From Escherichia coli (lineage in GTDB: Bacteria > Pseudomonadota > Gammaproteobacteria > Enterobacterales > Enterobacteriaceae): a stretch of 64,000 nucleotides of DNA. The stretch's first letter is position 1, and each line of letters begins with the position of its first letter. The notes under the pieces are model-generated. The model saw nothing but the letters and a program-made list of their open reading frames with translations. It was not told where the DNA came from and searched no databases. This document shows, in pieces, positions 7,802 to 47,659 of this stretch. The DNA lies in the NCBI RefSeq assembly GCF_044324875.1, contig NZ_CP172185.1; one strand, given 5' to 3'. A program made the position numbers and the translations under genes.

Positions 7802-7858
7802 GCCGTCAACCCATTGGTTTTGCAGCCGGATGAGGCATTAAGCACCAACTACTATTAT

Positions 7859-15265: not shown

Positions 15266-16459
15266 TCAAATCTGCCGTAACTGCGCCTCAACATACAAAT
15301 AGCCAATTCCCAGTACCTGTTGTGCGCGGCTTAATTGCCCAAAGCCAATTTTCGTCGCTTTCACGCTCGGTCCTTCGTCGCGGTCGAACGGGTTAAATCC
15401 CGTCTGGCGAATAATGGTATTAAGCCAGTGCTCACCAAAGGCACAACTGCGACCGTACAACCAAATCTGATTAATATTGAGGATGTTGAGGAAGTTATAC
15501 AGACTCAAACCAATGGCATTGGCAGAGCGATCAACCCAGCTGGTGATCCACGGTTCTCCACTCTGCCAGGCAGCGATTAACTGCGCTGTTGTCAGTTTTT
15601 CAGGATCAAGCTGAGTATTAACCGGTTGTGATTTTAGCCATACCCGTGCCTGTTTTTTTAATGCACTTAACGAGGCGACGGTTTCCAGGCAGCCGTAACG
15701 TCCACAGTCGCAGACGACGCCATTCGGATTAACGATGGTGTGACCAATCTGTCCGCTACCATACAAACAGCCGCGATAAATTTGCTCGTTAATCACGAAC
15801 GACGAGCCAATACCGTAATCAACGTTGATCACGCAGAAATCCCGGCCCTGCGAATTATTTTGCCATTTCTCCGCCAGCGCCAGCATCACGCAGTCATTAT
15901 CGACCATCACCCGAATGCCGAGCTTCTCTTCCAGCAGATACTTCACCTCAACCGGCGTTGTCCACGGTGCTTGCGGCATGGTTTGCGACACGCCAGTCAC
16001 CGGATCAACCTGACCGTGGATTGCCAGCGCCAGGTTGATGGTACGGTCCGGCCACAATTTACGGTGGCGATGCCAGCATTTTTCGATTTCGGACAGCAGC
16101 GCCTGCGGCGTCGGTGCATCAATCTGTAAATACTCAAATTCGCCTTTCGGACTTAAACAGGCGTTAGCGACCTGACACTCAATACTGGTAGGCGTCACGT
16201 TCAGGCACAGCGTCCAGTCACCTTCCGGCGCAATCAGCCATGTACCGCTACTATGCCCGCGCGTCTGGCTTTCATCGTCGATATTCACCACCCGTTTTTC
16301 GCTTTCCAGTTCCTGCAAAATATTACTGACCGCCGGAATCGAAATTTGCGCCAGCCGGGCCAGGGTTGATTTATTGGCGCGCTTTTGCCGGTACAGCAGT
16401 TCCAGAATCACGCATTTGTTATGGTGGCGAATCTGTTGATTATTAATGCAGGCTCTCAT
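15266..16459 (-). CDS. yphH: ROK-family (NagC/Mlc-like) transcriptional regulator
   Basis: N-terminal HTH, ROK sugar-kinase-like fold with zinc motif CDCGRYGCLE; 397 aa from the internal Met; divergent from the yphG-B cluster. Confidence 0.85.
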   Translation of the reverse strand: MRACINNQQIRHHNKCVILELLYRQKRANKSTLARLAQISIPAVSNILQELESEKRVVNIDDESQTRGHSSGTWLIAPEGDWTLCLNVTPTSIECQVANACLSPKGEFEYLQIDAPTPQALLSEIEKCWHRHRKLWPDRTINLALAIHGQVDPVTGVSQTMPQAPWTTPVEVKYLLEEKLGIRVMVDNDCVMLALAEKWQNNSQGRDFCVINVDYGIGSSFVINEQIYRGCLYGSGQIGHTIVNPNGVVCDCGRYGCLETVASLSALKKQARVWLKSQPVNTQLDPEKLTTAQLIAAWQSGEPWITSWVDRSANAIGLSLYNFLNILNINQIWLYGRSCAFGEHWLNTIIRQTGFNPFDRDEGPSVKATKIGFGQLSRAQQVLGIGYLYVEAQLRQI

Positions 16460-16576: not shown

Positions 16577-19500
16577 ATGACTCCAGTAAAAGTGTGGCAA
16601 GAGCGCGTTGAGATCCCGACCTATGAAACCGGGCCGCAGGATATACATCCCATGTTCTTGGAAAATCGCGTTTATCAGGGATCGTCCGGCGCGGTTTATC
16701 CCTACGGCGTGACCGATACGCTGAGCGAGCAGAAAACCCTGAAATCCTGGCAGGCGGTGTGGCTGGAAAACGACTACATCAAAGTGATGATCCTGCCGGA
16801 ACTGGGCGGTCGGGTGCATCGCGCGTGGGATAAAGTGAAACAGCGCGATTTTGTCTATCACAATGAAGTCATTAAACCGGCGCTGGTGGGGCTGCTGGGA
16901 CCGTGGATCTCCGGCGGGATTGAGTTTAACTGGCCGCAACACCATCGCCCGACCACCTTTATGCCCGTTGATTTCACCCTCGAAGCCCATGAAGACGGCG
17001 CACAAACCGTGTGGGTAGGCGAAACGGAGCCGATGCATGGTTTACAGGTGATGACAGGTTTCACCCTGCGCCCTGACCGGGCGGCGCTGGAAATCGCCAG
17101 CCGCGTCTATAACGGCAACGCCACGCCGCGTCATTTCTTGTGGTGGGCCAACCCGGCAGTGAAAGGGGGTGAAGGGCATCAGAGCGTCTTCCCGCCGGAT
17201 GTAACGGCGGTGTTTGATCACGGCAAACGGGCCGTCTCTGCTTTCCCCATCGCCACCGGCACTTACTACAAAGTGGACTACTCCGCCGGAGTGGACATTT
17301 CTCGCTATAAAAATGTGCCTGTTCCAACCTCATATATGGCTGAAAAATCACAGTACGATTTTGTTGGCGCGTGGTGTCACGATGAAGATGGCGGTTTGCT
17401 GCACGTTGCCAACCACCATATTGCGCCAGGTAAAAAACAGTGGAGCTGGGGACACAGTGAATTTGGCCAGGCGTGGGATAAGAGTCTGACCGACAATAAC
17501 GGCCCGTATATCGAACTGATGACCGGTATTTTTGCCGATAACCAGCCTGATTTTACCTGGCTTGATGCGTACGAAGAGAAGCGTTTCGAGCAGTATTTCC
17601 TGCCTTATCATTCTCTGGGCATGGTGCAAAATGCCTCCCGCGATGCGGTGATAAAACTCCAGCGTAGTGAGCGGGGGATTGAGTGGGGGCTGTATGCCAT
17701 CTCTCCGTTGAAAGGATACCGCCTGGCGATCCGCGAAATCGGCAAATGCAACGCGTTGCTCGATGATGCCGTGGCCCTGACACCAGCGACCGCCATCCAG
17801 GGCGTGTTGCACGGTATCAATCCTGAAAGGCTGACCATTGAACTCTCCGATGCCGACGGCAATATCATACTGAGTTATCAGGAACATCAGCCGCAAGAGC
17901 TGCCGTTGCCGGACGTCGCCAAAGCGCCACTGGCAGCACAAGACATTACCAGTACAGATGAAGCCTGGTTTATCGGTCAGCATCTGGAGCAATATCATCA
18001 CGCCAGCCGTTCACCGTTCGATTACTACCTGCGCGGCGTGGCGCTGGATCCGCTGGATTATCGCTGTAATCTGGCGCTGGCGATGCTGGAATATAACCGC
18101 GCCGATTTCCCGCAAGCGGTGGCGTATGCCACTCAGGCGCTGAAACGCGCACATGCGCTGAACAAAAATCCGCAGTGCGGACAGGCGAGCTTGATTCGCG
18201 CCAGTGCTTACGAACGTCAGGGGCAATATCAACAAGCCGAAGAGGATTTCTGGCGTGCGGTCTGGAGCGGCAACAGTAAAGCCGGTGGCTATTATGGTCT
18301 GGCACGGCTGGCGGCGCGTAATGGTCACGTCGACGCTGGTCTGGATTTTTGCCAACAAAGTCTTCGCGCCTGCCCAACCAATCAGGAAGTGCTTTGCCTG
18401 CATAATCTGCTGCTGGTGTTAAGTGGTCGTCAGGACAACGCGCGTTTGCAGCGTGAGAAACTGCTGCGTGATTATCCGCTGAACGCCACTCTGTGGTGGC
18501 TGAACTGGTTCGATGGTCGTAGCGAATCAGCCCTCGCGCAGTGGCGCGGTCTGTGTCAGGGACGCGACGTTAACGCCCTGATGACCGCCGGGCAACTGAT
18601 TAACTGGGGAATGCCCACCCTGGCGGCAGAGATGCTGAACGCACTGGACTGCCAGCGCACGCTGCCGCTTTATCTGCAGGCGAGTTTATTGCCGAAAGCT
18701 GAACGCGGCGAACTGGTCGCAAAAGCCATTGATGTCTTCCCACAGTTTGTCCGTTTCCCGAATACGCTGGAAGAAGTGGCGGCGCTGGAGAGTATTGAAG
18801 AGTGCTGGTTTGCCCGTCATTTACTGGCCTGCTTCTACTACAACAAGCGCAGCTACAACAAAGCCATTGCCTTATGGCAACGTTGCGTAGAGATGTCGCC
18901 GGAGTTTGCCGACGGCTGGCGCGGGTTAGCGATCCATGCGTGGAATAAGCAACACGATTATGAGCTGGCCGCGCGTTATCTTGATAATGCTTATCAGCTT
19001 GCGCCGCAGGATGCACGTCTGCTTTTCGAACGGGATTTGCTGGATAAGTTAAGTGGAGCCACACCGGAGAAACGACTGGCGCGTCTGGAAAATAATCTGG
19101 AAATTGCGCTGAAACGCGACGACATGACCGCAGAACTGCTCAATTTGTGGCATCTCACTGGTCAAGCAGACAAAGCGGCGGATATTCTCGCCACGCGCAA
19201 ATTCCACCCGTGGGAAGGCGGGGAAGGGAAGGTCACCAGTCAGTTTATCCTCAATCAGCTATTACGCGCCTGGCAGCACCTTGATGCCAGAGAGCCGCAG
19301 CAGGCCAGCGAACTGCTTCATGCCGCGCTGCATTATCCGGAAAATTTAAGCGAAGGCCGTTTACCCGGGCAAACTGATAACGACATCTGGTTCTGGCAGG
19401 CGATATGCGCTAACGCGCAGGGCGATGAAACTGAAGCGACGCGTTGTTTACGTCTGGCGGCGACCGGCGATCGCACCATTAACATTCACAGTTATTACAA

Positions 19501-19858
19501 CGATCAGCCGGTTGATTATCTCTTCTGGCAAGGAATGGCGCTGCGACTGCTGGGCGAACAACAAATCGCACAGCAACTGTTTAGTGAAATGAAACAGTGG
19601 GCGCAAGAGATGTCGAAAACCAGTATCGAGGCGGATTTCTTTGCTGTTTCACAACCTGACCTGTTGTCGCTGTATGGCGATTTACAACAGCAGCATAAAG
19701 AAAAATGCCTGATGGTGGCGATGCTGGCGTCCGCGGGACTAGGGGAGGTTGCGCAATATGAATCTGCTCGCGCTGAATTGACGGCGATTAATCCGGCCTG
19801 GCCGAAAGCAGCATTATTCACCACCGTGATGCCTTTTATTTTTAACCGCGTTCACTAA
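16577..19858 (+). CDS. yphG: large uncharacterized protein with C-terminal TPR-like repeats
   Basis: 1093-aa ORF from ATG 16577 (the six-frame ORF extends to 16484); first gene of a co-directional cluster with an ABC sugar transporter. Confidence 0.8.
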   Translation: MTPVKVWQERVEIPTYETGPQDIHPMFLENRVYQGSSGAVYPYGVTDTLSEQKTLKSWQAVWLENDYIKVMILPELGGRVHRAWDKVKQRDFVYHNEVIKPALVGLLGPWISGGIEFNWPQHHRPTTFMPVDFTLEAHEDGAQTVWVGETEPMHGLQVMTGFTLRPDRAALEIASRVYNGNATPRHFLWWANPAVKGGEGHQSVFPPDVTAVFDHGKRAVSAFPIATGTYYKVDYSAGVDISRYKNVPVPTSYMAEKSQYDFVGAWCHDEDGGLLHVANHHIAPGKKQWSWGHSEFGQAWDKSLTDNNGPYIELMTGIFADNQPDFTWLDAYEEKRFEQYFLPYHSLGMVQNASRDAVIKLQRSERGIEWGLYAISPLKGYRLAIREIGKCNALLDDAVALTPATAIQGVLHGINPERLTIELSDADGNIILSYQEHQPQELPLPDVAKAPLAAQDITSTDEAWFIGQHLEQYHHASRSPFDYYLRGVALDPLDYRCNLALAMLEYNRADFPQAVAYATQALKRAHALNKNPQCGQASLIRASAYERQGQYQQAEEDFWRAVWSGNSKAGGYYGLARLAARNGHVDAGLDFCQQSLRACPTNQEVLCLHNLLLVLSGRQDNARLQREKLLRDYPLNATLWWLNWFDGRSESALAQWRGLCQGRDVNALMTAGQLINWGMPTLAAEMLNALDCQRTLPLYLQASLLPKAERGELVAKAIDVFPQFVRFPNTLEEVAALESIEECWFARHLLACFYYNKRSYNKAIALWQRCVEMSPEFADGWRGLAIHAWNKQHDYELAARYLDNAYQLAPQDARLLFERDLLDKLSGATPEKRLARLENNLEIALKRDDMTAELLNLWHLTGQADKAADILATRKFHPWEGGEGKVTSQFILNQLLRAWQHLDAREPQQASELLHAALHYPENLSEGRLPGQTDNDIWFWQAICANAQGDETEATRCLRLAATGDRTINIHSYYNDQPVDYLFWQGMALRLLGEQQIAQQLFSEMKQWAQEMSKTSIEADFFAVSQPDLLSLYGDLQQQHKEKCLMVAMLASAGLGEVAQYESARAELTAINPAWPKAALFTTVMPFIFNRVH

Positions 19859-19954
19859 ACCTTATTAACTGTAATATTTGAGCGGCACGCGCTGCCGCTC
19901 ACGCTCAAATAATTAAAATAAGCCGTTGTAAATAAAAACCCTACAGGAGGTACT

Positions 19955-20938
19955 ATGCCTAAAAAAATGAGAACAACCCGTAATCTATTATTAATGGCTA
20001 CGCTATTAGGTAGCGCACTATTTGCCAGGGCTGCGGATAAAGAAATGACCATTGGCGCAATATACCTTGATACCCAGGGATATTACGCTGGTGTGCGTCA
20101 GGGCGTTCAGGATGCGGCAAAAGATTCTTCAGTACAGGTACAGTTAATTGAAACTAACGCCCAGGGTGATATTTCGAAAGAAAGTACCTTTGTTGATACC
20201 CTCGTGGCGCGTAATGTCGATGCCATTATTTTATCGGCAGTGTCTGAAAATGGCAGTAGCCGTACCGTTCGTCGCGCCAGTGAAGCGGGTATTCCGGTAA
20301 TTTGCTACAACACCTGTATTAATCAAAAAGGCGTCGATAAATATGTCTCGGCGTATCTGGTCGGCGATCCGCTGGAATTTGGTAAAAAACTGGGTAACGC
20401 TGCCGCCGATTATTTTATTGCCAACAAAATTGACCAGCCGAAAATTGCCGTCATCAATTGCGAAGCCTTTGAAGTTTGTGTGCAGCGCCGTAAAGGATTT
20501 GAAGAAGTATTAAAAATCCGTGTTCCCGGCGCGCAAATTGTCGCTAATCAGGAAGGGACTGTTTTAGATAAAGCGATTTCCGTTGGTGAAAAACTAATTA
20601 TCTCCACGCCGGATCTCAACGCCATTATGGGGGAATCGGGCGGTGCGACACTCGGCGCGGTAAAAGCGGTACGTAATCAAAATCAGACCGGAAAAATTGC
20701 TGTTTTCGGTTCGGATATGACCACTGAAATTGCTCAGGAGCTGGAAAACAATCAGGTGCTGAAAGCGGTGGTGGATATTTCCGGTAAGAAAATGGGCAAT
20801 GCTGTTTTCGCGCAAACTTTGAAGGTTATCAATAAACAAGCCGACGGTGAAAAAGTGATTCAGGTGCCTATCGATCTCTATACCAAAACGGAAGACGGTA
20901 AACAGTGGCTGGCAACGCACGTTGATGGTCTGCCCTAA
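19955..20938 (+). CDS. yphF: ABC transporter periplasmic sugar-binding protein
   Basis: Signal peptide, periplasmic-binding-protein type I fold (ribose/LacI-like); strong AGGAGG Shine-Dalgarno. Confidence 0.85.
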   Translation: MPKKMRTTRNLLLMATLLGSALFARAADKEMTIGAIYLDTQGYYAGVRQGVQDAAKDSSVQVQLIETNAQGDISKESTFVDTLVARNVDAIILSAVSENGSSRTVRRASEAGIPVICYNTCINQKGVDKYVSAYLVGDPLEFGKKLGNAAADYFIANKIDQPKIAVINCEAFEVCVQRRKGFEEVLKIRVPGAQIVANQEGTVLDKAISVGEKLIISTPDLNAIMGESGGATLGAVKAVRNQNQTGKIAVFGSDMTTEIAQELENNQVLKAVVDISGKKMGNAVFAQTLKVINKQADGEKVIQVPIDLYTKTEDGKQWLATHVDGLP

Positions 20939-20960
20939 TCGCTGATTCGCAGAGGTCCCT

Positions 20961-22472
20961 ATGTTCACGGCAACAGAGGCAGTCCCGGTAGCAATAGTGG
21001 TAGCTGGAAATAAGCGTTATCCCGGCGTCGTTGCGCTGGATAACGTTAACTTCACGCTCAATAAAGGAGAAGTTCGTGCGCTGTTAGGCAAAAACGGCGC
21101 GGGCAAATCGACCCTCATTCGAATGCTTACCGGCAGTGAACGTCCGGATAGCGGTGATATCTGGATTGGCGAGACGCGACTGGAAGGTGACGAAGCTACG
21201 TTGACTCGCCGTGCCGCTGAACTGGGGGTTCGTGCGGTTTATCAGGAGTTAAGTCTGGTGGAGGGACTGACGGTGGCGGAAAACCTCTGCCTCGGTCAGT
21301 GGCCCCGCCGCAACGGCATGATTGATTACCTGCAAATGGCGCAGGATGCCCAACGTTGCTTACAGGCGCTGGGCGTTGACGTTAGCCCTGAACAACTTGT
21401 TTCAACGCTAAGCCCGGCGCAAAAGCAACTGGTGGAAATTGCGCGGGTGATGAAGGGCGAGCCGCGCGTGGTCATTCTTGATGAACCTACCAGTTCGCTT
21501 GCCAGTGCGGAAGTTGAACTGGTGATCAGCGCGGTTAAAAAGATGTCGGCACTGGGCGTGGCGGTGATTTATGTCAGCCACCGGATGGAAGAAATCCGCC
21601 GCATTGCCTCCTGTGCCACCGTTATGCGCGATGGTCAGGTAGCGGGCGATGTGATGCTCGAAAACACCTCCACGCATCATATTGTGTCGCTAATGCTCGG
21701 GCGCGATCACGTTGATATTGCGCCGGTTTCCCCTCAGGAAATTGTCGATCAGGCTGTGCTGGAAGTCCGTGCGTTACGCCATAAGCCCAAGCTGGAGGAT
21801 ATCAGCTTTACGCTCCGTCGTGGCGAAGTGCTCGGCATTGCTGGCCTGCTGGGGGCAGGGCGCAGTGAATTGTTGAAAGCCATAGTTGGGCTGGAGACGT
21901 ATGAACAGGGCGAAATTGTTATCAACGGCGAGAAAATCACGCGCCCCGATTACGGCGACATGCTGAAACGCGGCATTGGCTATACGCCAGAAAACCGCAA
22001 AGAAGCGGGGATCATTCCCTGGCTGGGCGTTGACGAAAATACAGTGCTGACCAATCGGCAAAAAATCAGCGCCAACGGTGTGCTGCAATGGTCCACCATC
22101 CGCCGCCTGACCGAAGAGGTGATGCAGCGGATGACGGTCAAGGCCGCCAGTAGCGAAACGCCCATCGGCACGCTTTCTGGCGGCAATCAGCAAAAAGTGG
22201 TGATCGGTCGTTGGGTCTATGCCGCCAGCCAGATTTTGTTGCTCGACGAGCCAACGCGTGGCGTCGATATCGAAGCCAAACAGCAGATTTACCGTATTGT
22301 CCGCGAGCTGGCTGCCGAAGGAAAAAGTGTGGTGTTTATCTCCAGTGAAGTGGAGGAGTTGCCGCTGGTGTGTGACCGCATCCTGTTATTACAGCACGGT
22401 ACGTTCTCGCAGGAGTTTCACTCGCCGGTCAATGTGGATGAGCTGATGTCCGCCATTCTGTCTGTGCACTGA
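20961..22472 (+). CDS. yphE: ABC transporter ATP-binding protein, duplicated ATPase (sugar-import type)
   Basis: Two nucleotide-binding domains with Walker A GKNGAGKST / GLLGAGRSE and signature LSGGNQQK. Confidence 0.9.
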   Translation: MFTATEAVPVAIVVAGNKRYPGVVALDNVNFTLNKGEVRALLGKNGAGKSTLIRMLTGSERPDSGDIWIGETRLEGDEATLTRRAAELGVRAVYQELSLVEGLTVAENLCLGQWPRRNGMIDYLQMAQDAQRCLQALGVDVSPEQLVSTLSPAQKQLVEIARVMKGEPRVVILDEPTSSLASAEVELVISAVKKMSALGVAVIYVSHRMEEIRRIASCATVMRDGQVAGDVMLENTSTHHIVSLMLGRDHVDIAPVSPQEIVDQAVLEVRALRHKPKLEDISFTLRRGEVLGIAGLLGAGRSELLKAIVGLETYEQGEIVINGEKITRPDYGDMLKRGIGYTPENRKEAGIIPWLGVDENTVLTNRQKISANGVLQWSTIRRLTEEVMQRMTVKAASSETPIGTLSGGNQQKVVIGRWVYAASQILLLDEPTRGVDIEAKQQIYRIVRELAAEGKSVVFISSEVEELPLVCDRILLLQHGTFSQEFHSPVNVDELMSAILSVH

Positions 22473-22496
22473 TGAATTTTACCGAGGAACCTGAAG

Positions 22497-23495
22497 ATGT
22501 CTGCTTCGTCATTACCATTGCCGCAGGGCAAGAGCGTCTCGCTCAAACAATTTGTCAGTCGCCATATTAATGAGATCGGTTTGCTGGTGGTGATCGCCAT
22601 TCTTTATCTGGTCTTCTCCCTGAACGCGCCGGGCTTTATCTCATTGAATAACCAGATGAACGTGCTGCGCGATGCCGCCACCATTGGGATTGCCGCCTGG
22701 GCGATGACGCTGATTATTATCTCCGGTGAAATTGATGTCAGCGTTGGGCCGATGGTGGCTTTTGTCTCGGTGTGCCTGGCATTTTTGCTGCAATTTGAAG
22801 TTCCGCTGGCGGTGGCGTGTCTGCTGGTGTTGCTGTTAGGCGCGCTGATGGGAACGCTGGCCGGGGTGCTGCGCGGCGTGTTTAACGTACCAAGTTTCGT
22901 TGCCACACTGGGGCTGTGGAGCGCCCTGCGCGGAATGGGGCTGTTTATGACCAACGCCCTGCCAGTGCCGATTGACGAAAACGAGGTACTGGACTGGCTG
23001 GGTGGACAATTTCTCGGAGTGCCGGTATCCGCGCTGATCATGATGGTGTTGTTTGCGCTGTTTGTGTTCATCAGCCGCAAAACCGCCTTCGGGCGCTCGG
23101 TTTTTGCTGTTGGCGGTAATGCCACTGCAGCACAGTTGTGCGGCATCAACGTTCGTCGGGTGCGCATTCTTATCTTTACCCTTTCGGGATTATTAGCGGC
23201 GGTGACCGGCATTTTGTTGGCGGCGCGCCTCGGTTCCGGTAACGCAGGTGCCGCAAACGGTCTGGAGTTTGACGTCATCGCCGCGGTCGTGGTCGGTGGT
23301 ACGGCACTTTCCGGCGGTCGCGGTTCCCTGTTTGGTACATTGCTTGGTGTGTTGGTGATTACGCTAATCGGTAACGGTCTGGTGCTGCTCGGGATTAACT
23401 CCTTTTTCCAGCAGGTGGTGCGCGGCGTCATCATCGTGGTGGCGGTGCTGGCGAATATCTTGCTGACTCAGCGAAGCAGTAAAGCGAAACGCTAA
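22497..23495 (+). CDS. yphD: ABC transporter permease (RbsC/AraH-like)
   Basis: 332-aa polytopic hydrophobic protein immediately after yphE. Confidence 0.85.
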   Translation: MSASSLPLPQGKSVSLKQFVSRHINEIGLLVVIAILYLVFSLNAPGFISLNNQMNVLRDAATIGIAAWAMTLIIISGEIDVSVGPMVAFVSVCLAFLLQFEVPLAVACLLVLLLGALMGTLAGVLRGVFNVPSFVATLGLWSALRGMGLFMTNALPVPIDENEVLDWLGGQFLGVPVSALIMMVLFALFVFISRKTAFGRSVFAVGGNATAAQLCGINVRRVRILIFTLSGLLAAVTGILLAARLGSGNAGAANGLEFDVIAAVVVGGTALSGGRGSLFGTLLGVLVITLIGNGLVLLGINSFFQQVVRGVIIVVAVLANILLTQRSSKAKR

Positions 23496-23560
23496 ACCTA
23501 AACGCCCCTGGCGCGGGTGCGGCAGGGATGAAAATTAATCGTATTGTTAATGAGGGATTT

Positions 23561-24622
23561 ATGAAAACGATGCTGGCAGCTTATTTACCAGGAAATTCGA
23601 CCGTCGATCTGCGGGAAGTTGCGGTGCCGACGCCGGGGATTAACCAGGTACTGATCAAAATGAAATCCTCCGGGATTTGCGGAAGTGATGTCCACTATAT
23701 CTATCATCAACACCGTGCCACGGCAGCGGCACCCGATAAACCGTTATACCAGGGATTTATCAACGGTCATGAACCGTGCGGGCAGATTGTGGCGATGGGG
23801 CAAGGCTGCCGCCATTTTAAAGAGGGCGACCGCGTGCTGGTGTATCACATTTCTGGCTGTGGTTTTTGCCCGAACTGCCGCCGCGGCTTTCCTATCTCTT
23901 GTACTGGCAAAGGAAAAGCGGCTTACGGCTGGCAGCGTGACGGCGGTCATGCCGAATACCTGCTGGCGGAAGAAAAAGATCTGATCCTGCTCCCGGACGC
24001 GCTGAGCTATGAAGATGGTGCGTTTATCAGTTGCGGCGTTGGTACAGCGTATGAAGGGATTTTGCGCGGCGAAGTTTCCGGCAGTGATAACGTGCTGGTG
24101 GTCGGTCTGGGGCCGGTCGGCATGATGGCGATGATGCTGGCGAAAGGTCGCGGTGCAAAAAGGATCATCGGCGTTGATATGCTGCCGGAACGTCTGGCGA
24201 TGGCGAAACAGTTAGGGGTGATGGATCATGGCTATTTAGCAACGACCGAAGGTCTGCCGCAGATTATCGCCGAACTTACCCACGGTGGCGCGGATGTTGC
24301 GCTCGATTGTTCCGGTAATGCCGCAGGTCGCTTACTGGCGTTGCAATCCACTGCTGACTGGGGACGGGTGGTTTACATCGGAGAAACCGGAAAAGTGGAG
24401 TTCGAGGTTAGCGCCGATCTGATGCATCATCAACGGCGGATTATTGGCTCCTGGGTGACCAGTCTGTTCCATATGGAAAAATGCGCCCACGATTTAACGG
24501 ACTGGAAACTGTGGCCGCGTAATGCCATTACCCATCGCTTCACGCTGGAACAGGCAGGAGATGCCTATGCGCTGATGGCGAGCGGTAAATGCGGGAAAGT
24601 TGTGATTAACTTCCCGGATTAA
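23561..24622 (+). CDS. yphC: zinc-dependent alcohol/polyol dehydrogenase (MDR family)
   Basis: GHEPCG catalytic zinc motif, CxxCxxC structural zinc site, GLGPVG Rossmann motif; internal Met start (353 aa). Confidence 0.85.
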   Translation: MKTMLAAYLPGNSTVDLREVAVPTPGINQVLIKMKSSGICGSDVHYIYHQHRATAAAPDKPLYQGFINGHEPCGQIVAMGQGCRHFKEGDRVLVYHISGCGFCPNCRRGFPISCTGKGKAAYGWQRDGGHAEYLLAEEKDLILLPDALSYEDGAFISCGVGTAYEGILRGEVSGSDNVLVVGLGPVGMMAMMLAKGRGAKRIIGVDMLPERLAMAKQLGVMDHGYLATTEGLPQIIAELTHGGADVALDCSGNAAGRLLALQSTADWGRVVYIGETGKVEFEVSADLMHHQRRIIGSWVTSLFHMEKCAHDLTDWKLWPRNAITHRFTLEQAGDAYALMASGKCGKVVINFPD

Positions 24623-24633
24623 GGAGTCAGCGG

Positions 24634-25505
24634 ATGACCATCTATACGTTATCTCACGGGCCGCTAGAGCTGGACGTTTCTGACCGGGGCGGTGTCATCG
24701 AAGGCTTCTGGCGTGACGCGACGCCGCTCTTACGTCCCGGTAAAAAAAGCGGTGTGGCAACCGATGCCTCTTGTTTTCCGCTGGTGCCGTTTGCAAACCG
24801 GGTGAGCGGCAATCGTTTTGTCTGGCAGGGGCGTGAGTATCAACTGCAACCGAATGTTGAGTGGGATGCGCACTATCTGCACGGCGACGGCTGGCTGGGG
24901 CAGTGGCAATGTGTCTCGCGCAGCGAAGATAGCTTGTGTCTGGTGTATGAACATCGCAGCGGTGTTTATCACTATCGGGTAAGTCAGGCGTTTCATTTAA
25001 CGGCAGATACGCTGACGGTGACGCTCTCTGTCACCAATCAAGGGACAGAGACGCTGCCATTTGGTACCGGCTGGCATCCTTATTTTCCGTTGTCACCACA
25101 AACGCGGATTCAGGCGCAGGCGAGCGGTTACTGGCTGGAGCGGGAGCAGTGGCTGGCGGGTGAGTTTTCGAGCAGCTACCGCAGGAGCTGGATTTCAACC
25201 AGCTCGCGCCGTTGCCGCACCAGTGGGTGAACAATGGCTTTGCCGGATGGAATGGTCAGGCCCGCATCGAGCAGCCGCAGGAGGGTTATGCCATCATCAT
25301 GGAAACGACGCCACCTGCACCATGTTATTTCATCTTTGTTTCCGACCCGGCGTTTGATAAAGGATATGCGTTTGATTTCTTCTGTCTGGAACCGATGAGC
25401 CATGCGCCGGATGACCATCATCGCCCGGAAGGGGGTGATCTCATTGCGCTTGCACCAGGGGAATCAACAACTTCAGAGATGTCGTTGCGGGTTGCGTTAC
25501 TGTAA
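24634..25505 (+). pseudogene. yphB: aldose 1-epimerase-family (mutarotase-like) gene interrupted by a 1-nt frameshift
   Basis: N-terminal frame 24634-25230 and C-terminal frame 25164-25505 overlap; total span 872 nt (3n-1); the frame change maps to GAGTTTTCGAG at about 25162-25170. Confidence 0.7.
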
Positions 25506-25531
25506 TTTATAAAATGCCGGATAAGGCGTTC

Positions 25532-26433
<902 letters not shown>

Positions 26434-26987
26434 TTTTTTTCCAGGAGATGCTCCTGCATGGCTTTCAGATATGCATTTTCTGCGCGAAGATAACGCAGCT
26501 CATTCTTCATCTCTTCCGGCGTCATGTTTGCCTCGTTTTCATGGGTATCATCAGAACGGGTCATGCTTTTCTCCTTCCAGCGCCTGATAAAGGCCTCATT
26601 ACCAGATTTGCGGTAGCCTTTTATCCAGTTTTTAACCGTGTTGTGGCTGGGAATGTTAAACCGGGCAGCTACCCGGGGTAGAGACTCAGAATGCCCGAGA
26701 GCATAAAGAACCACGCAAAGTTTATCTTCAGGAGAATAGCTACGCTTGTGTCTGCAATCCAGTGCCCGAGGACCGTGAAGAAGAAAAAGATTAATCCAGT
26801 GTGAGAGGCTGGTGTGAGAAAGTTGAAAGAGTTTTGCCGTAGAAATGATGCCTGCATGACCGGCCAGGTAATGATTTACAGCGGCAAGTTTTACTTCAAA
26901 TGAATGTTTCATAAACTGCACCTTCAGATGTCAGATTATGTCCAACATTTGGGGTGCAGTTCATTCACGCCGCATCCGGCATCTTTC

Positions 26988-43837: not shown

Positions 43838-44038
43838 ATGGGACTTAAGTGGACCGATAGCCGCGAAATTGGCGAAGCACTGTACGATGCGTATCCCGAT
43901 CTTGATCCGAAAACGGTTCGATTCACCGATATGCATCAGTGGATTTGCGATCTGGAAGATTTCGACGACGACCCGCAGGCATCCAACGAGAAAATCCTCG
44001 AAGCGATTTTGTTAGTCTGGCTGGACGAAGCCGAATAA
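43838..44038 (+). CDS. iscX: Fe-S assembly protein IscX
   Basis: 66-aa acidic [27 protein letters not shown]... Confidence 0.9.
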
Positions 44039-44074
44039 TTTCCGCGTCATGCTTCACGCCGCAGATGCGTTGGC

Positions 44075-44200
44075 TGCGCTCGTTCACCCCAGTCACATAG
44101 TTATCTATGCTCCTGGGGCTTCACTCACTTGCCGCGTGATTCGGCCTTTTGGCCTCACCCCTCCGGGGCCAGCGCAAGCGCTGTTCAAAACGCAATGCGT
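44075..44200. repeat. ERIC/IRU repeat element
   Basis: CGCTCGTTCACCCCAGTCAC...ATGCTCCTGGGGCTTCAC match both ERIC primer-site cores (reverse complement of AAGTAAGTGACTGGGGTGAGCG, and ATGTAAGCTCCTGGGGATTCAC); imperfect palindrome in the iscX-pepB spacer. Confidence 0.7.
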
Positions 44201-44282
44201 TTTGTCCTGCAACGCGAATCATTTAGCGGAAAAATCCTGGGGCTGCCAACTGGCGGCCCTTTTACAAAGAAGGATAACTAAA

Positions 44283-45708: not shown

Positions 45709-46485
45709 ATGTCCGAAACAAAAAATGAACTTGAAGACCTGCTGGAAAAAGCAGCAACCGAACCGGCGCACCGCCCGGCCTTTTTCCGTACTCTACTGGA
45801 ATCCACCGTCTGGGTGCCGGGTACGGCGGCGCAGGGCGAGGCTGTGGTTGAAGATAGCGCGCTTGATTTACAGCACTGGGAAAAAGAAGACGGCACCAGC
45901 GTCATTCCTTTTTTTACCTCGTTAGAAGCACTTCAACAGGCGGTTGAAGACGAACAGGCATTTGTCGTAATGCCCGTTCGCACATTGTTTGAGATGACCC
46001 TTGGCGAAACGCTCTTCCTTAATGCCAAACTGCCAACCGGTAAAGAATTTATGCCGCGTGAAATCAGTTTGTTGATTGGTGAAGAAGGAAATCCGCTGAG
46101 CAGCCAGGAAGTACTGGAGGGCGGTGAATCGCTGATATTATCGGAAGTCGCAGAGCCACCAGCACAAATGATTGATTCTCTCACCACCTTATTTAAAACT
46201 ATTAAGCCGGTGAAGCGTGCTTTTATTTGTTCAATTAAAGAGAACGAAGAGTCACAGCCTAATTTACTTATTGGCATTGAAGCCGATGGTGATATCGAAG
46301 AAATTATTCAGGCGGCGGGAAGTGTAGCGACCGATACATTACCTGGCGATGAACCCATCGATATTTGTCAGGTGAAAAAAGGGGAAAAAGGAATTAGCCA
46401 CTTTATTACCGAACATATTGCGCCATTCTATGAACGTCGCTGGGGTGGTTTTTTGCGTGACTTTAAACAGCATCGGATAATCTAA
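45709..46485 (+). CDS. sseB: enhanced serine sensitivity protein SseB
   Basis: 258-aa ORF MSETKNELEDLLEKAATEPAHRPAFF...; synteny between pepB and sseA. Confidence 0.85.
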   Translation: MSETKNELEDLLEKAATEPAHRPAFFRTLLESTVWVPGTAAQGEAVVEDSALDLQHWEKEDGTSVIPFFTSLEALQQAVEDEQAFVVMPVRTLFEMTLGETLFLNAKLPTGKEFMPREISLLIGEEGNPLSSQEVLEGGESLILSEVAEPPAQMIDSLTTLFKTIKPVKRAFICSIKENEESQPNLLIGIEADGDIEEIIQAAGSVATDTLPGDEPIDICQVKKGEKGISHFITEHIAPFYERRWGGFLRDFKQHRII

Positions 46486-46802
46486 AATATGCCGCCCCAA
46501 AGGGCGGCATTCGGGCTTACTTGCTGCTCTGAAGTTTGTTAACCACCAGTAAATTGTTGCCGGAGAGACTCCGGTTATTATTTACCTCGGTTAACAGCGC
46601 ACCAGAAACAATAAGTACGATACAAAAGCACCGTATCTTCATTGTGCGGTCCATGCGAAGACCGCATCACGACAGCACCACTGGCGATATTGCCGCGATA
46701 GCAAGCGCTGAGACGCGCTTGCTCTAACGGTCGCGGAACATCCTTTCCTTAAGCCAGCGCCCGCTTGCGAGACGGCGGAAAGGGCCGCAGTGGATAATAC
46801 AC
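46486..46802 (-). ncRNA. ryfA: RyfA-like RNA copy 1 (putative small-protein toxin mRNA, TimP/RyfA type); 5' end approximate
   Basis: Minus-strand unit between a promoter-like TTGTCA-16-TATTGT (about 46837-46810) and terminator hairpin ATGCCGCCCTTTGGGGCGGCAT plus U-tract (46510-46486); about 310 nt; leader has SD-sequestering CCTTTCC/GGAAAGG stem. Confidence 0.6.
46517..46654 (-). CDS. hypothetical 45-aa small protein with hydrophobic N-terminal segment (candidate type I toxin)
   Basis: ORF MDRTMKIRCFCIVLIVSGALLTEVNNNRSLSGNNLLVVNKLQSSK verified codon by codon; identical in copy 2 except the last residues; no strong Shine-Dalgarno, so start codon uncertain. Confidence 0.35.
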   Translation of the reverse strand: MDRTMKIRCFCIVLIVSGALLTEVNNNRSLSGNNLLVVNKLQSSK

Positions 46803-46865
46803 TAACAGAACAATAATAACTCTCTTTTGCTTGACAAAAAGAGGGTTACTGGCGAGTATTGTCTC

Positions 46866-46962
46866 CGCTGAGACGCGCTTGCATTACTACGGTAATACAA
46901 CCTGCTGGAAAGGCCGCGAACCGGACCAGCAACAAAAAACCGCCTGATTTTGGCGGTTTTTT
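46866..46962 (+). ncRNA. putative sRNA 1, divergent from RyfA-like copy 1 (candidate antitoxin RNA, TimR-like)
   Basis: TTGACA (46831-46836) -17 bp- GAGTAT promoter; about 97 nt to intrinsic terminator AAAAAACCGCC-tgatttt-GGCGGTTTTTT (46935-46962); 5' 17 nt identical to the plus strand at 46706-46722. Confidence 0.5.
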
Positions 46963-47079
46963 GTTGTTTAAAGAAAGTGAATTTACATGTTCAAGTAATA
47001 TCTTTTATTGGTTAGTATTTTTAATATTAAGCGAAAATTGTTTATATTTGTCTGAATTCGGACTAATAAGCTAGGTTAT

Positions 47080-47163
47080 TTTATTACCGAACATATTGCG
47101 CCATTCTATGAACGTCGCTGGGGTGGTTTTTTGCGTGACTTTAAACAGAATGGGATAATTTAA
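47080..47163 (+). pseudogene. duplicated 3' fragment of sseB (about 27 C-terminal codons plus stop), non-functional remnant at the repeat junction
   Basis: TTTATTACCGAACATATTGCGCCATTCTATGAACGTCGCTGGGGTGGTTTTTTGCGTGACTTTAAACAG repeated from 46402-46470, followed by a diverged tail and TAA at 47161-47163. Confidence 0.8.
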
Positions 47164-47480
47164 AACATGCCGCCCCAAAGGGCGGCATTCGGGCTTACCT
47201 GCTGTTCTGAAGGTTGTTAACCACCAGTAAATTGTTGCCGGAGAGACTCCGGTTATTATTTACCTCGGTTAACAGCGCACCAGAAACAATAAGTACGATA
47301 CAAAAGCACCGTATCTTCATTGTGCGGTCCATGCGAAGACCGCATCACGACAGCACCACTGGCGATATTGCCGCGATAGCAAGCGCTGTGAAACACCTGC
47401 ATTTACGGCCATGGAACATCCTTTCCTTAAGCCAGCGCCCGTTTGCGAGACGGCGGAAAGGGCCGGTGTCGATAATACGC
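47164..47480 (-). ncRNA. ryfA: RyfA-like RNA copy 2; 5' end approximate
   Basis: Same architecture as copy 1, shifted by 678 bp; terminator hairpin at 47167-47188; leader diverged from copy 1. Confidence 0.6.
47195..47332 (-). CDS. hypothetical 45-aa small protein, paralogue of the 46517-46654 ORF
   Basis: Same ORF as copy 1 with three C-terminal substitutions (K to N, S to N, K to R); frame and length preserved. Confidence 0.35.
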   Translation of the reverse strand: MDRTMKIRCFCIVLIVSGALLTEVNNNRSLSGNNLLVVNNLQNSR

Positions 47481-47543
47481 TAAATAAACAATGATTACTG
47501 TCTTTCGCTTGACAAAAAGAGAGTTACTGGCGAGTATTGCTTT

Positions 47544-47644
47544 GCTGTGAAGCACCTGCGTTGCTCATGCAACACAAGCCAACCTGCTGGAAAGGCCGCG
47601 AACCAGACCAGCAATAAAAAACCGCCAAATTCGGCGGTTTTTTA
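47544..47644 (+). ncRNA. putative sRNA 2, divergent from RyfA-like copy 2 (candidate cognate antitoxin RNA)
   Basis: TTGACA (47509-47514) -17 bp- GAGTAT promoter; terminator AAAAAACCGCC-aaattc-GGCGGTTTTTT (47616-47645) also serves convergent sseA; 5' region matches the plus strand at 47384-47403 with G-U wobbles. Confidence 0.5.
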
Positions 47645-47659
47645 TTGCCTGTAAAAAGC

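Follow-up and report, generated by a model that had tools for sequence, protein, structure and literature searches.

The yphB gene of Escherichia coli K-12 (b2544; structure PDB 3NRE) is an intact gene of 873 nt, which closes the yphGFEDCB cluster, is convergent with yphA and lies beside the hca operon. Its product, a putative aldose 1-epimerase, shares the fold family of GalM and the hexose mutarotases (PF01263). In these enzymes two histidines and one glutamate are conserved; one of the histidines and the glutamate have been proposed to act as general acid and general base, and the second conserved histidine has been proposed to bind the substrate (PMC5902678). We searched a literature library for the function of yphB or of the yph operon and found no characterising paper; the one relevant item was a mutarotase alignment that makes use of 3NRE (PMC5902678). 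Sporadic, strain-specific pseudogenes, in which a single-nucleotide lesion interrupts an accessory metabolic gene, are known in E. coli. The insertion sequence IS1397 is documented to target REP sequences, or palindromic units (PMC1525189).

We analysed a stretch of 64,000 nucleotides of E. coli DNA, which we call the window. Here yphB has the same neighbours and the same place in its cluster as in K-12, but, unlike in the K-12 gene, one base has been lost (c.536delG) and no more than 178 native residues are encoded. The part of the gene that bears the glutamate is out of frame, in contrast to the GalM family. An IS1397 element follows the gene and sits, with a short target duplication, in a REP sequence, in agreement with its documented target specificity. 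Very probably, c.536delG is a genuine loss-of-function mutation of yphB, which is very recent, private to one clone and unrelated to IS1397. It is an ordinary strain-specific frameshift pseudogene that arose by an already known mechanism, and the exact allele alone is new to the databases searched.

Structure of the yphB locus and identity of the lost base

The yphB pseudogene occupies positions 24634..25505 on the plus strand. It is 872 nt long, compared with 873 nt in intact alleles, and PF01263 matches were found in both of its halves. We compared it with the annotated yphB (aldose 1-epimerase) of strain AST215 and observed 99.8% identity, the differences being one gap and one SNP. The top hits among complete E. 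coli genomes were all 873 nt long at this locus and were annotated "yphB: aldose 1-epimerase". The repaired protein matched the K-12 YphB structure 3NRE over residues 1-288 with E = 1e-200, and the gene is flanked by yphC upstream and by yphA/hcaD downstream. Five further genes of the cluster, yphG, yphF, yphE, yphD and yphC (16577..24622, plus strand), lie upstream and are intact, with full-length, gap-free tblastn matches to the proteins of isolate AF39; yphB is the final gene of this co-directional yphGFEDCB run. The initial annotation had named the gene yphB, mutarotase-like, and the last gene of the yph cluster; the PF01263 match, the similarity to 3NRE, the K-12 synteny and the gene order agree with both statements.

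The truncated open reading frame (24634..25230, plus strand) starts with the ATG at 24634 and encodes 198 amino acids, namely 178 native residues followed by 20 out-of-frame residues (SSSYRRSWISTSSRRCRTSG). It ends with a premature TGA at 25228..25230 (plus strand), which is codon 199 of the shifted frame and lies 60 nt downstream of the deletion. In the frame of the C-terminal part, a TGA at 25161-25163 precedes an open stretch that starts at 25164 and ends with the TAA at 25503-25505; its translation reads ...VFEQLPQELDFNQ... through ...SLRVALL. When an intact orthologue was used as a tblastn query, its residues 1-178 matched at 24634-25167 (frame 1) and its residues 180-290 at 25170-25502 (frame 3). 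The out-of-frame C-terminal remainder (25170..25505, plus strand) corresponds to wild-type residues 180-290 and includes the C251-L-E253-P motif with the catalytic general-base Glu of the family. Compared with intact orthologues, the window copy has an indel that is not a multiple of three, followed by a premature stop. The gene had been described as split by a 1-nt frameshift, with a length of 872 nt, a TGA at 25228-25230 and a second frame open from 25164, and all these values were reproduced in our analysis.

Pairwise alignments with AST215 and AF39 placed the missing base between T25168 and C25169 (25168..25169, plus strand). The wild-type sequence is GAG TTT TGC GAG CAG (E-F-C-E-Q), while that of the window is GAG TTT T-C GAG CAG, with a single gap. 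The motif at 25162-25172 reads GAGTTTTCGAG in the window, whereas sister loci and more distant loci all read GAGTTTTGCGAG. What has been lost is a G at nucleotide 536 of 873, the middle base of the Cys179 codon TGC. Its loss results in Cys179Ser, 19 further wrong residues and a stop at codon 199. We put the G back in silico and obtained a 290-aa protein that was identical to a YphB allele which is very common and occurs in 7,746 blocks of a protein collection. Since the repaired protein is the common wild-type YphB, c.536delG is the sole lesion in the gene.

The shift had thus been placed correctly by the initial annotation, as a 1-nt deletion, but the base was misidentified: it was taken for one T of a homopolymer, and it is G536 that is missing. 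The T4 run at 25165..25168 (plus strand) is of equal length in the mutant and wild-type alleles and is not the site of the loss. Therefore neither slippage in the homopolymer nor a homopolymer miscall was the mechanism, and the heuristic by which an indel beside a homopolymer is probably a sequencing error points to the wrong mechanism in this case. The refuting observation that had been proposed, resequencing that reveals an extra T, is not the right test either. A T added instead of the G restores the frame but gives Cys179Phe rather than the wild type.

The deletion abuts the T4 run, and so a T could be thought to have been lost by replication slippage, which would make yphB a reversible, phase-variable switch. 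We consider this extremely improbable, because exactly four T's are present in both the wild type and the mutant and the absent base is the G that follows them. The change of length lies outside the mononucleotide tract, and the deletion site did not vary in length in 5,030 genomes. Further, a T4 tract is far below the tract lengths of contingency loci, which also counts against slippage and phase variation.

Evidence for a genuine and recent mutation

The initial annotation had left a choice between real pseudogenisation and a homopolymer sequencing error. The evidence favours the former, as the deletion is reproduced in Logan contigs, which are independent assemblies of public read sets; the evidence for the deletion is at the level of assemblies. 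We looked up the exact 198-aa truncated product in a collection of 15 billion proteins and found it on two Logan contigs. Over 20,295 bp (5266-25560), a span that includes the deletion, the window is matched at 100% identity by the SRR31072984 contig, which a second sample also contains and which terminates at the IS boundary. This identity places the lesion in the DNA and not in one assembly, although both Logan samples may derive from the window's own isolate as separate runs, in which case they would confirm the reads and would not be an independent biological replicate.

We also considered that yphB is really intact at 873 nt and that the G was dropped by the basecaller, the assembler or the polisher. 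Single-base deletions are a classic assembly artefact, the allele is known from one clone alone, the window's genome lies outside the RefSeq complete set (best identity 98.8%), and a systematic basecalling fault common to all reads of one platform is conceivable. Nevertheless, we regard such an error as quite improbable. The lost base is outside a homopolymer, the T4 run being unchanged, and de novo assembly of the reads, carried out independently and recorded in two samples, gave the same sequence over 20 kb. Moreover, none of the 50 other genes of the window has an indel, despite long runs that include an A7 run within yphB itself. All 50 were full-length and gap-free at the protein level when compared with AF39, the nearest complete genome, from which the window differs by about 830 substitutions over 62 kb. 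None of the remaining indels touches an annotated gene, and several lie in spacers that are REP-like or highly divergent. The lack of any other coding indel in 50 genes indicates that the assembly is not generally indel-prone.

One more unusual single-base difference, the loss of a G at 26964 in the right IS junction, 1.8 kb from the deletion, was examined as a possible sign of systematic error. The G was present in all 58 complete genomes with an IS at this site, but a separate NCBI draft of the window's lineage (GCA_036632015.1) also lacks it, and systematic error was ruled out here. The difference is a real feature of the lineage, and this is evidence that unusual single-base states of the window reflect biology.

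We did not detect the yphB deletion in any of the 5,030 matching complete E. coli genomes, all of which differed from the window by the one-base gap. The 5,426 complete E. coli genomes of RefSeq do not include the window's lineage; over 25 kb the highest identity was that of isolate AF39, at 98.8%, and IAI39 reached 97.8%. Draft genomes are rich in this lineage. We located them by the YphG and HcaD alleles of the window, which occurred in 184 and 230 blocks of the collection, respectively; the repaired YphB allele is too common to single out sisters. Three of these drafts (GCA_050232825.1, GCA_040713135.1 and GCA_958308375.1) differed from the window by 1-3 substitutions over about 16 kb. In all three the IS insertion downstream of yphB is present, the G is present and YphB is 290 aa long. 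Between GCA_958308375.1 and the window we observed two differences in 16,104 bp, namely the deletion and a C>T at 15724.

The latter change is private and falls in codon 246 of yphH (minus strand, window position 15724), where it causes the substitution D246N. The affected residue is in the loop of the zinc-binding motif of ROK proteins (GHTIVNP[D>N]GVVCDCGRYGCLE). In the whole protein collection, YphH D246N was found in the window and in the SRR31072984 Logan contig alone, and it co-occurs with the yphB frameshift.

Because the sisters are intact and both private changes are confined to the window and the Logan contig, the frameshift is very recent and private to one clone. Exact-sequence look-ups in read-level assemblies, together with near-identical sisters, can separate a private mutation from an artefact without the reads themselves.

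Predicted consequence for YphB and the improbable reading of an adaptive loss

YphB has one domain, Aldose_epim, at residues 3-285. Of the 299 positions of the Pfam profile, the truncated product spans 2-194 and the C-terminal remainder matches 198-298. The scores against PF01263 were 119.5 bits for the N-terminal fragment, 45.7 for the C-terminal fragment and 177.8 for the intact orthologue, at a Pfam gathering cut-off of 27. In the alignment with E. coli GalM, the GalM residues H104 and H175 correspond to YphB H83 and H148, which are upstream of the break and are retained in the truncated product. The region of GalM E309 corresponds to YphB residues 253-255, the site of C-L-E253-P, which is downstream of codon 179. 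The pairwise GalM alignment is two columns off YphB E253, so the assignment of the Glu rests on the conserved motif; either position is past the break. Thus no single polypeptide carries both histidines and the catalytic Glu, as H83 and H148 precede codon 179, the CLEP Glu follows it and the stop is at codon 199, after residue 198.

As the catalytic base and the C-terminal third of the fold are missing from the product, we infer that the allele is null and that the enzyme would be inactive. In the course of events that we propose, a single G, nucleotide 536 (Cys179 TGC), was deleted in a clonal lineage with IS1397 already present in the downstream REP. The frame is shifted from codon 179 on, twenty wrong residues are added and the TGA at 25228-25230 ends translation. 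The resulting 198-aa product keeps H83 and H148 but not the CLEP Glu or the C-terminal third, and would probably be inactive. Since yphB is the last gene of yphG-F-E-D-C-B, no polarity on downstream genes is expected; the upstream transporter and dehydrogenase genes of the cluster are intact.

The two halves of the gene could in principle still give a functional enzyme, by a programmed -1 frameshift, by transcriptional slippage or by reinitiation at GTGA (25227-25230) with reassembly of the two polypeptides. A possible GTG-initiated ORF of 92 aa (25227..25505, plus strand), the GTG of which overlaps the premature TGA, is open in the correct C-terminal frame. It was annotated by the gene caller and is given as a separate gene in a Logan contig (L004, 10594-10872), and both fragments still match Pfam Aldose_epim. 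We find retained function highly improbable all the same. The zero-frame GAG TTT TCG does not conform to the slippery heptamer X XXY YYZ, and the -1 frame (GTT, TTC) offers poor re-pairing. A T4 run is too short for transcriptional slippage. A product in two pieces would be without wild-type residues 179-198 and, in a domain that is one beta-sandwich, would bear 20 junk residues. The frameshift is absent from all 5,030 complete genomes, and the near-identical sisters have an unbroken frame. A single mutation separates the allele from the in-frame wild type and no orthologue shares it, and for this reason an evolved recoding signal is not possible.

Independent lesions of yphB were also observed in other E. 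coli lineages. In SRR7064557 we observed a premature stop after residue 197 of YphB; yphC was also called shorter there, at 337 aa. In the draft GCA_002972095.1 a 1-nt deletion in an A8 run (equivalent to window positions 24742-24749) results in ORFs of 56 and 234 aa. Here the affected run is a true homopolymer, and the draft may be in error. The independent lesions suggest that yphB is dispensable in at least some lineages, and a strong fitness cost of its loss is probably absent.

Such lesions are also consistent with an adaptive loss, in which selection would reshape or shut down the yph sugar-utilisation pathway in the niche of the clone. The only two private changes of the clone across approximately 28 kb, compared with its nearest sisters, are YphH D246N and the yphB frameshift. 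Both are in the yph cluster, and YphH is a putative regulator or kinase (ROK). We tried to read selection on the yph locus from these two mutations and rejected it as having no statistical support. In each sister genome a private SNP occurs about once per 12-16 kb, so two changes in approximately 28 kb are at the background rate and the coincidence of D246N with the frameshift is unremarkable. We consider adaptive loss improbable. Natural yphB-null strains and their isogenic intact sisters (e.g. GCA_958308375.1) could serve studies of the yph pathway.

The neighbouring IS1397 element and other features of the window

The element next to yphB had been identified as IS150. We found that it is IS1397 of the IS3 family (25532..26963, minus strand), 1,432 bp long and starting 26 bp past the yphB stop codon. 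Its bounds were determined by comparison with AST215, in which the site is empty. Its identity to the AF39 copy at the same site is 99.3%; in RefSeq that copy, like those of the 57-58 complete genomes with this insertion, is annotated as an IS1397-family transposase. We detected no significant DNA similarity to K-12 IS150, the best blastn match being 25 bp at 84%, and the proteins were 28% (InsJ) and 51% (InsK) identical. The appropriate annotation is therefore a yphB pseudogene (c.536delG) with IS1397 as its neighbour.

The empty site reads GCCGGATAAGGCGTTCACGCCGCATCCGGC. The element is inserted in the REP loop and splits GCCGGATAAGGCG-TTC-ACGCCGCATCCGGC. The left half of the REP palindrome (GCCGGATAAGGCGTTC) is at 25516..25531 and ends with the TTC target duplication, and the right half (TTCACGCCGCATCCGGC) is at 26964..26980 and begins with it.

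A link between the insertion and the frameshift was considered and rejected. Insertion of the IS at the same site, with an intact yphB, was observed in 57-58 complete genomes and in several near-identical sister drafts. Since yphB is intact in sisters that bear IS1397, the element was in place before the frameshift arose and had no part in it.

The target duplication is the 3-bp TTC in the window and in the draft GCA_036632015.1 (junctions at 25529-25531 and 26964-26966), and the 4-bp GTTC in all 58 complete genomes that have an IS at this REP. The difference reflects one of two events: a separate insertion into this REP loop, or the loss of 1 bp where the element joins it.

Elsewhere in the window we observed a tandem duplication of approximately 570 bp (46402-46966 and 47080-47647, 90% identical), which comprises the 3' tail of sseB and an ORF for a TimP-like small toxic membrane protein. 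One timP copy (47198-47320) is 100% identical to AF39 TimP and the other (46520-46642) is 92.7% identical; AF39 itself has a single copy. The iscX-pepB spacer (44036-44282) is about 185 bp longer than that of AF39, and downstream of purL (7828-7834) there is a block of small indels relative to AF39 in apparent REP/BIME sequence. The differences in the iscX-pepB spacer and after purL are ordinary intergenic repeat polymorphisms.
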